Shown piece after piece: positions 56,282 to 56,368 of a stretch of 64,000 nt of DNA. The position numbers and the translations under genes are program-made. A model generated the notes under the pieces. That model saw nothing but the letters and a program-made list of their open reading frames with translations. It was not told where the DNA came from and ran no database searches. This stretch comes from a virus. Lineage: Duplodnaviria; Heunggongvirae; Uroviricota; Caudoviricetes. Within the stretch, counting starts at the first letter, position 1, and the number at the start of each line of letters is the position of its first letter. The stretch is from positions 1-64,000 of IMG/VR virus record IMGVR_UViG_2667527770_000005, one strand, 5' to 3'.

Positions 56282-56368
56282 TGGTGGGGAGTGATGGAGT
56301 CGAACCACCCGAGTCGCAATGACAGTAGATTTACAGTCTCCCCCGCTACCTCTACGGACTAACTCCCC
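56282..56368 (-). tRNA. class II (long variable arm) tRNA, probable anticodon GUA (Tyr-like); non-canonical D-arm
   Basis: 87 nt incl. CCA; acceptor GGGGAGT/ACTCCCC, anticodon loop CTGTAAA, variable arm resembling E. coli tRNA-Tyr, T-arm GGTGG-TTCGACT-CCATC; one G-A mismatch in anticodon stem. Confidence 0.5.

Follow-up and report, generated by a model that had tools for sequence, protein, structure and literature searches.

Escape of phage T6 from cleavage of tRNA-Tyr by Septu works by dosage: infection is restored by overexpression of tRNA-Tyr or by SegB-driven amplification, deletion of the tRNA region sensitizes the phage, and T4, which has no tRNA-Tyr, is unable to escape (PMC13096335). 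The T6 tRNA-Tyr is also described as relatively unstable (PMC13096335). Host tRNA-Tyr is depleted by the PtuAB proteins of retron-Eco7, and rescue by the tRNA-Tyr of T5/SP15 requires an intact anticodon and intact stems (PMC11555353). When 245 coliphage tRNAs were screened against PtuAB, tRNA-Tyr(GUA) was enriched (PMC12445682), and a variable arm of the type carried by phage KookSpook (CGACUCGGAAGGGUCUCG) has been reported to resist cleavage. Other defence nucleases act on other tRNAs. AriB of PARIS cleaves the Lys tRNA (UUU), the Thr tRNA (UGU), and the Asn tRNA (GUU) beside a UAAU motif (PMC12409363), and an AriB-resistant T5 tRNA-Lys carries mutations at two positions, 39 among them. Phage tRNA-Thr(UGU) suppresses OLD of P2, which inactivates ThrU.

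The reference genome of P1 (NC_005856) is annotated with the tRNA genes Asn, Thr, and Ile2, and the initial annotation of the present locus was correct in giving three tRNAs (Asn, Thr, Ile) for this phage. Reference P1 has no Tyr gene, its Asn and Thr genes lying 2 nt apart, and RCS47 and D6 are likewise without Tyr between Asn and Thr. In the window, by which is meant the whole 64,000-nt stretch of viral DNA analysed here, four tRNA genes were called by ARAGORN, all on the minus strand. Three of these are a tRNA-Thr(UGU) of the P1-type allele (56202..56277), a tRNA-Asn(GUU) whose "type 2" allele goes with the Tyr gene (56374..56448), and a tRNA with the anticodon CAT (Met/Ile2; 54322..54397), the fourth of the operon, which P1 annotates as tRNA-Ile2. 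The remaining one is a tRNA-Tyr(GUA) gene located between Thr and Asn. The 3 kb around it are 96-98% identical to P1-like phages (RCS47, Ro157c2YLVW, P1 isolates). The best explanation for this gene, taken as a whole, is that a phage tRNA-Tyr entered with an Asn2-Tyr cassette, would be expressed from Pban, and would both supply tRNA during lytic growth and buffer against defence nucleases; its probability is put at roughly 0.6.

The tRNA-Tyr gene of the window

The tRNA-Tyr gene is 87 nt long, encodes a class II tRNA, and occupies 56282..56368 on the minus strand, as judged by ARAGORN, Rfam, a cloverleaf parse, and covariation. An extra class II tRNA between Thr and Asn had been proposed in the initial annotation, and the ARAGORN call, tRNA-Tyr(gta), has exactly the coordinates given there. 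The good acceptor, T-arm, Tyr-like variable arm, and CTGTAAA loop on which that proposal was built were each recovered in the cloverleaf parse of the RNA-sense sequence, GGGGAGUUAGUCCGUAGAGGUAGCGGGGGAGACUGUAAAUCUACUGUCAUUGCGACUCGGGUGGUUCGACUCCAUCACUCCCCACCA. All 7 bp of the acceptor stem (GGGGAGU/ACUCCCC) are paired, the T arm (GGUGG-UUCGACU-CCAUC) is canonical, and the 15-nt variable arm (UGUCAUUGCGACUCG; 56310-56324, minus strand) has a 3-bp stem. The 7-nt anticodon loop, CUGUAAA, contains the GUA anticodon (56332-56334, minus strand), the discriminator is A73, and the CCA end is encoded in the gene (56282-56284, minus strand).

Infernal aligned the gene to Rfam model RF00005 over its full length (model positions 1-71) with a score of 35.1 bits (E = 7.7e-5 in a 4-kb search), which is above the gathering threshold of 29 bits, so that the tRNA finders to which the question had been referred do return a cloverleaf score in addition to the ARAGORN call. 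The neighbouring Thr and Asn tRNAs reach 72-75 bits with the same model. Folding of the single sequence told little (z = -0.51), and its MFE structure differed from the cloverleaf; such a difference is usual for tRNAs and is seen in the active T6 homologue too. With more than 1,300 phage homologues, a cloverleaf formed by chance is excluded, and the 87-nt element is a genuine tRNA-Tyr gene.

D-arm architecture and the phage tRNA-Tyr family

Searches with the window tRNA-Tyr returned matches in 1,534 phage records; in 1,359 of these, 80% or more of the gene was covered. Similarity places the gene in a large lytic-phage tRNA-Tyr family whose members share 81-93% identity with it over 93-100% of the length. 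Identity is ~93% over the full length to trnY of rV5, CC31, CR3, and FV3, about 91% to RB68, 90.8% to T2, 89.7% to T6, ~82% to T5-like phages, and ~81% to FelixO1-like phages, and recognizable relatives extend to phages of Klebsiella, Pectobacterium, and even Enterococcus. The copies in rV5 (DQ832317), CC31, and CR3 resemble the window gene in the acceptor stem, the CCGU/GCGG D-stem with an extended connector, the variable arm, and the T-loop. Their gene neighbours differ from those in the window (Arg-Tyr-Ser in rV5, Tyr-Ile-Lys in CC31), and these three phages, unlike the P1-like elements, are strictly lytic. The T6 gene has an acceptor stem, D-stem, D-loop, anticodon loop, and variable arm identical to those of the window gene, and T5-like phages IrisVonRoten and poul124, at about 82% identity, have the D-arm architecture in common with it. 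The published probe for SP15 matches the KookSpook-type variable arm, unlike the arm found in the window.

The D-arm had been described as irregular, with decay of the gene as one explanation. In the canonical register, in which ARAGORN forces a 2-nt connector, the D-stem does have two mismatches, and to this extent the description holds; the suggestion of decay does not, as the arrangement is a covarying, family-wide architecture. Infernal placed a 2-nt insertion after U8-A9 and paired CCGU with GCGG in the D-stem, and the connector is the 4-nt UAGU (56358-56361, minus strand). An explicit cloverleaf parse was made for 17 diverse family members, including the window gene; a MAFFT alignment mis-registered KPP2018 and KookSpook. 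The ARAGORN start for the KPP2018 tRNA-Tyr was one base off. In all 17 parsed members, the 7-bp acceptor stem is followed by a connector made up of UA and 2-3 variable nt, a 4-bp D-stem enclosing a 7-8-nt D-loop (typically AGRGGUA), and one nt at position 26, and the D-loop holds the equivalents of A14, G18-G19 (A18 in ECP3), and A21. The family signature (UA + 2-3 nt, a CCGU-AGRGGUA-GCGG D-arm, and a UUCGACU T-loop) was found in 17 of 17 members with minor variants, namely AAGUGGUA, AGAUGGUA, or AGUUGGUA in the D-loop of some members and UGCGACU in the T-loop of ECP3. Apart from the latter, the T-loop is strictly conserved in the family, as are the anticodon loop, A73, and CCA.

Two independent double compensatory changes were found in the D-stem (CUGU/GCAG in KPP2018 and UCGU/GCGA in KookSpook), and double changes from one Watson-Crick pair to another occur in the acceptor, D, anticodon, and T stems of the 17 homologues. 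When the 21 stem pairs were scored in all 17 sequences, 355 of the 357 cells were canonical, the two exceptions being a C.U in the acceptor stem of KpV477 and G28.A42 in the window. Because it is conserved across the family with compensatory changes, the odd D-arm is a family trait and not decay. The shifted architecture also explains the low model scores, such as the Cove score of only 43.9 for trnY in the rV5 record, and the "pseudo" labels; homologues appear as "tRNA-Pseudo-GTA" or "tRNA-OTHER" in a few GenBank records. The versions in CC31, CR3, and JEP1 differ from that in the window in having a 5-nt connector, and because of this connector ARAGORN makes no call on them.

The canonical D-arm geometry, with the 2-nt connector and 3-bp D-stem of E. 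coli tyrU, is absent from the window gene and equally from the whole phage tRNA-Tyr family. The E. coli genes tyrU, tyrT, and tyrV share with the window gene the CUGUAAA loop, A73, G1-C72, and a long variable arm whose stem is GUC...GAC, and tyrU also has 20 nt between the acceptor and anticodon stems, but these are distributed as 2+3+11+3+1 in tyrU and as 4+4+7+4+1 in the window. Identity to the host tRNA-Tyr is only 62/87, and the host's 2-nt connector, 3-bp D-stem, and 11-nt D-loop contrast with lengths of 4-5 nt, 4 bp, and 7-8 nt in the phage family. A pattern scan of IMG/VR, which covered mostly unrelated phage tRNA-Tyr genes with four P1-like copies and one CC31-like copy as the family members, found the canonical arrangement in 83 of a sample of 115 other phage tRNA-Tyr genes and the shifted arrangement alone in 7. 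In this sample, the 4-nt-connector architecture is a recurrent minority type.

Occurrence in P1-like elements and linkage to the Asn allele

The gene is found at the same Asn-Tyr-Thr position in vB_EcoM-Ro157c2YLVW (NC_050153.1; 97.7% identity), where it is annotated as tRNA-Tyr(gta), and in p09EL50, a plasmid of E. coli O104:H4 (NC_018651.1; 98.9% identity). Among 5,426 complete RefSeq E. coli genomes, 269 contain it, in 272 records that are all plasmids and never a chromosome and in which PGAP labels it tRNA-Tyr; in PLSDB, about 245 plasmids carry the gene. The P1-type Asn/Thr cluster is present in 646 E. coli genomes of the complete set, and the contiguous Asn-Thr arrangement of P1 is matched at 99% or better by 390 E. 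coli records. Across the complete E. coli genomes, Tyr is present in roughly 40% of P1-type clusters, and as about 60% do without it, the gene is dispensable. It is a common, already annotated polymorphism rather than a new element. In the literature searched, no paper was found that discusses tRNA-Tyr in P1-like elements, and none that mentions Ro157c2YLVW.

Wherever this was looked at, the Tyr gene is accompanied by a distinct Asn allele. The "type 2" Asn is common to the window, Ro157c2, p09EL50, and AH04, each of which has Tyr, whereas RCS47, otherwise the closest relative of the window, has a "type 1" Asn and no Tyr between near-identical flanks, as does P1. The window Asn is identical to the N4-like Asn at 72/75 positions and to the P1 reference Asn at 68/76, and the window Thr is identical to P1 Thr at 74/76; Ro157c2 and p09EL50 have a Thr allele other than the P1-type Thr of the window. 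As a change in Tyr is accompanied by a change in the Asn allele, the simplest reading of the alleles is that an Asn2-Tyr cassette has been exchanged by recombination within conserved tRNA sequences.

Two other histories were considered and rejected. Loss of Tyr from P1 by a simple microhomology deletion does not account for the Asn allele changing together with Tyr. N4-like phages (e.g. vB_EcoP_3HA13) resemble the window in having three genes with 4-5-nt spacers and a class II tRNA in the middle, but their middle gene is a 90-nt tRNA-Ser(UGA) that has no convincing alignment with Tyr, and their Thr is only 62/76 identical to the window Thr. Derivation of Tyr from an N4-type tRNA-Ser by an anticodon switch was discarded, the middle genes barely aligning and Tyr being 93% identical to trnY of rV5/CC31.

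Expression, possible function, and the G28.A42 allele

In the P1 annotation, Pban lies upstream of the dicF-like region, trnA, trnT, tciA-C, trnI, and ban, all on one strand. The leader upstream of the window tRNA-Asn is nearly identical to that of P1. It includes a C1 repressor operator, ATTGCTCTAATAAATTT (Op72/Oban; 57117..57133, minus strand), which is conserved relative to the P1 annotation and overlaps the Pban promoters annotated there. A terminator-like hairpin with a T-run (56921..56940, minus strand) lies between Pban and the tRNAs, at the end of the P1 "dicF-like region." A simple scan of 55900-57250 found no sigma-70-like promoter and also missed the annotated Pban. From the P1 annotation, we infer C1-controlled transcription of the tRNA cluster, in which tRNA-Tyr would belong to a same-strand unit headed by C1-repressed Pban and would be made on infection or induction. 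This presumed temperate regulation distinguishes the gene from that of T6, which adjoins the homing endonuclease segB, an amplifier of the tRNA gene; segB is absent next to the window tRNA-Tyr. The Asn, Tyr, and Thr genes all encode CCA and are 4-5 nt apart (Asn-Tyr spacer, 5 nt, AUUUA, 56369..56373; Tyr-Thr spacer, 4 nt, AAUU, 56278-56281; both minus strand), which, in view of general tRNA biology, fits a common Asn-Tyr-Thr precursor that RNase P and 3' exonucleases would cut, with no need for CCA addition because CCA is encoded.

E. coli TyrRS recognizes A73, the G34/U35 bases of the anticodon, the long variable arm, and G1-C72. None of the 17 parsed members departs from the 15-nt variable arm with its 3-bp stem, from A73, or from G1-C72. 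The window tRNA has G1-C72 and A73 as well as the GUA anticodon and a long variable arm, so that charging by the host TyrRS would be expected, adding to the tRNA-Tyr pool in lytic growth; for the T5/SP15 relatives, charging with tyrosine is indirectly supported by the dependence of rescue on the anticodon. The likeliest benefit would be a dosage buffer against the tRNA-Tyr-depleting nucleases Septu and retron-Eco7 PtuAB. The cleavage site of Septu EcB88 (C48/A49 in GUCA) is kept in the window at raw positions 46-49, within a variable arm identical to that of T2/T6, and there is no substitution of the cleavage site relative to the host tRNA, of the resistant type represented by T5 tRNA-Lys versus PARIS. 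By analogy with T6, the window tRNA-Tyr should therefore be cleavable by Septu, and because the GUCA site is retained, protection would be by dosage and not by resistance. For the window gene we infer transcription from Pban, processing, charging, and an anti-defence benefit; for a temperate phage-plasmid, the anti-defence role is a hypothesis extrapolated from lytic phages.

A wider proposal is that the whole Asn-Tyr-Thr cluster is a modular anti-defence cassette and not a means of codon supply, with a Tyr polymorphism that tracks nucleases and with swaps between lytic and temperate phages inside tRNA genes. In such a cassette, Thr and Asn would replace the targets of PARIS AriB, Thr that of OLD, and Tyr that of Septu/retron-Eco7 PtuAB, and the presence or absence of Tyr would track exposure to PtuAB-type systems. 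The window Thr and Asn have UAAGCA and UAACCA where host thrU has UAAUCA, with G39 and C39 in place of U39; as a sign of AriB resistance, this difference is no more than a hint, base 39 lying in a stem and being free to vary. It nevertheless makes the cassette proposal plausible; the proposal is tentative and more likely to be wrong than right.

It is unlikely that the benefit of a functional tRNA-Tyr lies solely in general translational supply or codon matching, with no part in defence. Tyr codons make up 34 per 1000 in the long ORFs of the window (UAU 19.8 and UAC 14.2), somewhat above the ~28-29 per 1000 of E. coli K-12, and the codons of the other P1 tRNAs (AUA, 10.9, and ACA, 12.7 per 1000) look enriched, in line with codon compensation as the classical view of phage tRNAs (PMC13096335). 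The enrichment of Tyr codons is modest, however, and both are read by a single host tRNA species, which leaves no rare-codon gap, so that codon compensation is a weak reason for carrying the gene. Furthermore, the tRNA family spans unrelated phages of differing codon usage, and direct experiments tie the T6 and T5 homologues to defence escape (PMC13096335, PMC11555353).

The G-A mismatch that had been noted in the anticodon stem is present: position 28 is G (56340..56340, minus strand), mispaired with A42 (56326), whereas the closest alleles have U. Between a functional tRNA and a decaying one, the two options raised in the initial annotation, the D-arm no longer counts as a sign of decay, but the mismatch is a genuine lesion that may weaken the allele. 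In the 16 other parsed members, pair 28-42 is U-A in 4, C-G in 9, and G-C in 3. This base, a U28, is all that separates the alleles of p09EL50 and plasmid AH04 from that of the window, and in most copies on P1-like elements position 28 is likewise U, with every pair of the anticodon stem formed. G28 is confined to 4 of the 272 E. coli plasmid records, of which three represent one 92,675-bp pig plasmid and the fourth is a 96,904-bp plasmid of a human isolate; tRNA-Tyr genes 100% identical to that of the window lie at the Asn-Tyr-Thr position in NZ_CP158428.1 and NZ_CP149562.1. The change from U28 to G is predicted to raise the cloverleaf energy from -27.8 to -23.1 kcal/mol, a cost of ~4.7 kcal/mol, and to lower the pairing probability of the anticodon stem from 0.57 to 0.08 or less, the predicted cloverleaf of the window allele lying 5.9 kcal/mol above its own MFE fold.

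These predictions, the sole non-canonical 28-42 cell among 17 members, the rarity of the allele, and the many P1-like elements without the gene would suit a fresh pseudogene, in which U28-to-G blocks folding, modification, or ribosome use and the gene persists because it is dispensable in the plasmid state. We consider this improbable. The lesion is a single internal mismatch between four good pairs, of a kind that many working tRNAs tolerate, nothing is altered in any of the identity elements or in the processing contexts on either side, and the allele occurs in at least two different plasmids. Nor does the folding prediction decide function, because for the T6 homologue, whose activity is shown by experiment, the cloverleaf probability computed in silico is low as well, ~0.13. 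The mismatch is best explained by a point mutation, recent and rare and perhaps slightly deleterious, in a gene that is intact in other respects; with 28-42 unpaired, the window copy is probably a weaker tRNA, not necessarily an abolished one, and on the folding model it may be a hypomorph or dead.

A non-translational tRNA-like element (a nuclease decoy, a substrate for recombination or a homing endonuclease, or the chance cloverleaf already excluded above) would fit the non-canonical connector that lowers covariance-model scores, the "tRNA-Pseudo-GTA" records, the "decoy or supplement" role allowed for the T6 tRNA (PMC13096335), and the use of tRNA clusters as recombination substrates by SegB (PMC13096335) and in the present cassette exchange, but it is very improbable given the conserved anticodon loop, A73, CCA, and T-loop, the covariation over all stems, and the finding that SP15 tRNA-Tyr with a changed anticodon no longer rescues, so that decoding is required (PMC11555353).

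The favoured reading thus remains that of a phage tRNA-Tyr acquired with its Asn allele, supplied in lytic growth, and buffering against nucleases. The gene itself was already known from PGAP and phage annotation, and its homologues have been studied experimentally; what is added here is modest, namely the covarying D-arm, the rare G.A allele, the Asn2-Tyr cassette, and the ~40% frequency. For P1, the "three tRNAs" of the reference are incomplete, as about 40% of P1-type clusters add a fourth tRNA, Tyr. For the family, low covariance-model scores and occasional "pseudo" labels mark a conserved non-canonical D-arm and not decay. Through this gene, a temperate phage-plasmid is connected with the tRNA arms race, in which Septu/retron-Eco7 involve Tyr and PARIS/OLD involve Thr and Asn, and the natural Tyr+, Tyr-, and U28G variants are ready isogenic material for the question of counter-defence.

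Repeat and hairpins flanking the tRNA cluster

An exact 15-nt direct repeat, CACAACAGGTAAGGG in the sense of the tRNA strand, can be found at 56186-56200 and 56718-56732 of the window, where its two copies, 532 nt apart, flank the tRNA-Asn-Tyr-Thr cluster together with the ~270-nt leader of that cluster. By chance, ~5e-4 such exact repeats would be expected in 1 kb, and P1 keeps both copies. The repeat could represent the edges of an inserted tRNA module; alternatively, it could be an RNA-processing motif that is present twice.

Directly 3' of tRNA-Thr, a very stable hairpin is predicted on the minus strand (56105-56200; -40.8 kcal/mol, z = -4.1), with none of 200 shuffled sequences folding equally well. 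The predicted fold contains an acceptor-like stem of 10 bp (GGUAAGGGUA/UACCCUUACC) and an internal T-arm-like motif (GAGGG-UUCGAAU-CCCUA), and it resembles a tRNA-like element or the remnant of a tRNA. Neither ARAGORN nor Rfam called a tRNA at this hairpin, which is kept in both P1 and RCS47 and to which the plp ORF (55854-56231, plus strand) runs antisense. Upstream of the cluster, an intrinsic terminator-like hairpin with a run of seven T residues (56921-56940, minus strand) is situated between the C1-controlled promoter Pban and the tRNA genes; it is the counterpart of the end of the "dicF-like region" annotated in P1, and no Rfam match to DicF was obtained for this region at E<=1.

Reading frames and sRNA match downstream of the cluster

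Two ORFs of 275 and 78 amino acids are encoded on the minus strand downstream of the tRNA cluster (54425-55470), whereas reference P1 contains tciA-tciB-tciC at this position. Labels for these ORFs in relatives are lipoprotein, putative serine protease or SPFH-domain protein, and membrane protein. The corresponding region of RCS47 aligns at 98%, with a lipoprotein annotated at the matching end, and by sequence the lipoprotein gene appears to be common to the window and RCS47. Since RCS47 has no tRNA-Tyr but seems to carry this gene, the presence or absence of tRNA-Tyr and the lipoprotein-gene polymorphism appear to be independent of each other. A sub-threshold Rfam match to the gammaproteobacterial sRNA STnc100 was also noted at 55503-55623 on the minus strand; its score of 38.3 bits (E = 5.5e-6) falls short of the gathering threshold of 47, and the alignment is confined to positions 31-147 of the model.

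Additional tRNA-like genes in other phages

Phage D6 contains a separate class-II tRNA-Ser(UGA) gene of 87 nt (1638-1724 of D6 sequence L003), ~470 nt away from the pair of tRNA-Asn and tRNA-Thr genes. For the D6 tRNAs, the strands given in the GenBank features conflict with the minus-strand calls of ARAGORN in the orientation of L003. In rV5-like phages, trnS is followed downstream by a "tRNA-???" call of ARAGORN that spans 97 nt (791-887 of rV5 sequence L125 and 792-888 of JEP1 sequence L129); its anticodon is given as four bases (atcc), and its T-arm closely resembles that of the phage tRNA-Tyr family.

The AriB-associated motif in phage tRNA-Asn and tRNA-Thr

A UAAU motif has been reported to adjoin the cleavage site of the PARIS nuclease AriB (PMC12409363). 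Positions 36-41 read UAAUCA in host thrU, whereas the phage tRNA-Asn(GUU) (56374-56448) and tRNA-Thr(UGU) (56202-56277) have UAACCA and UAAGCA, respectively, and therefore both are without U39 of the motif.
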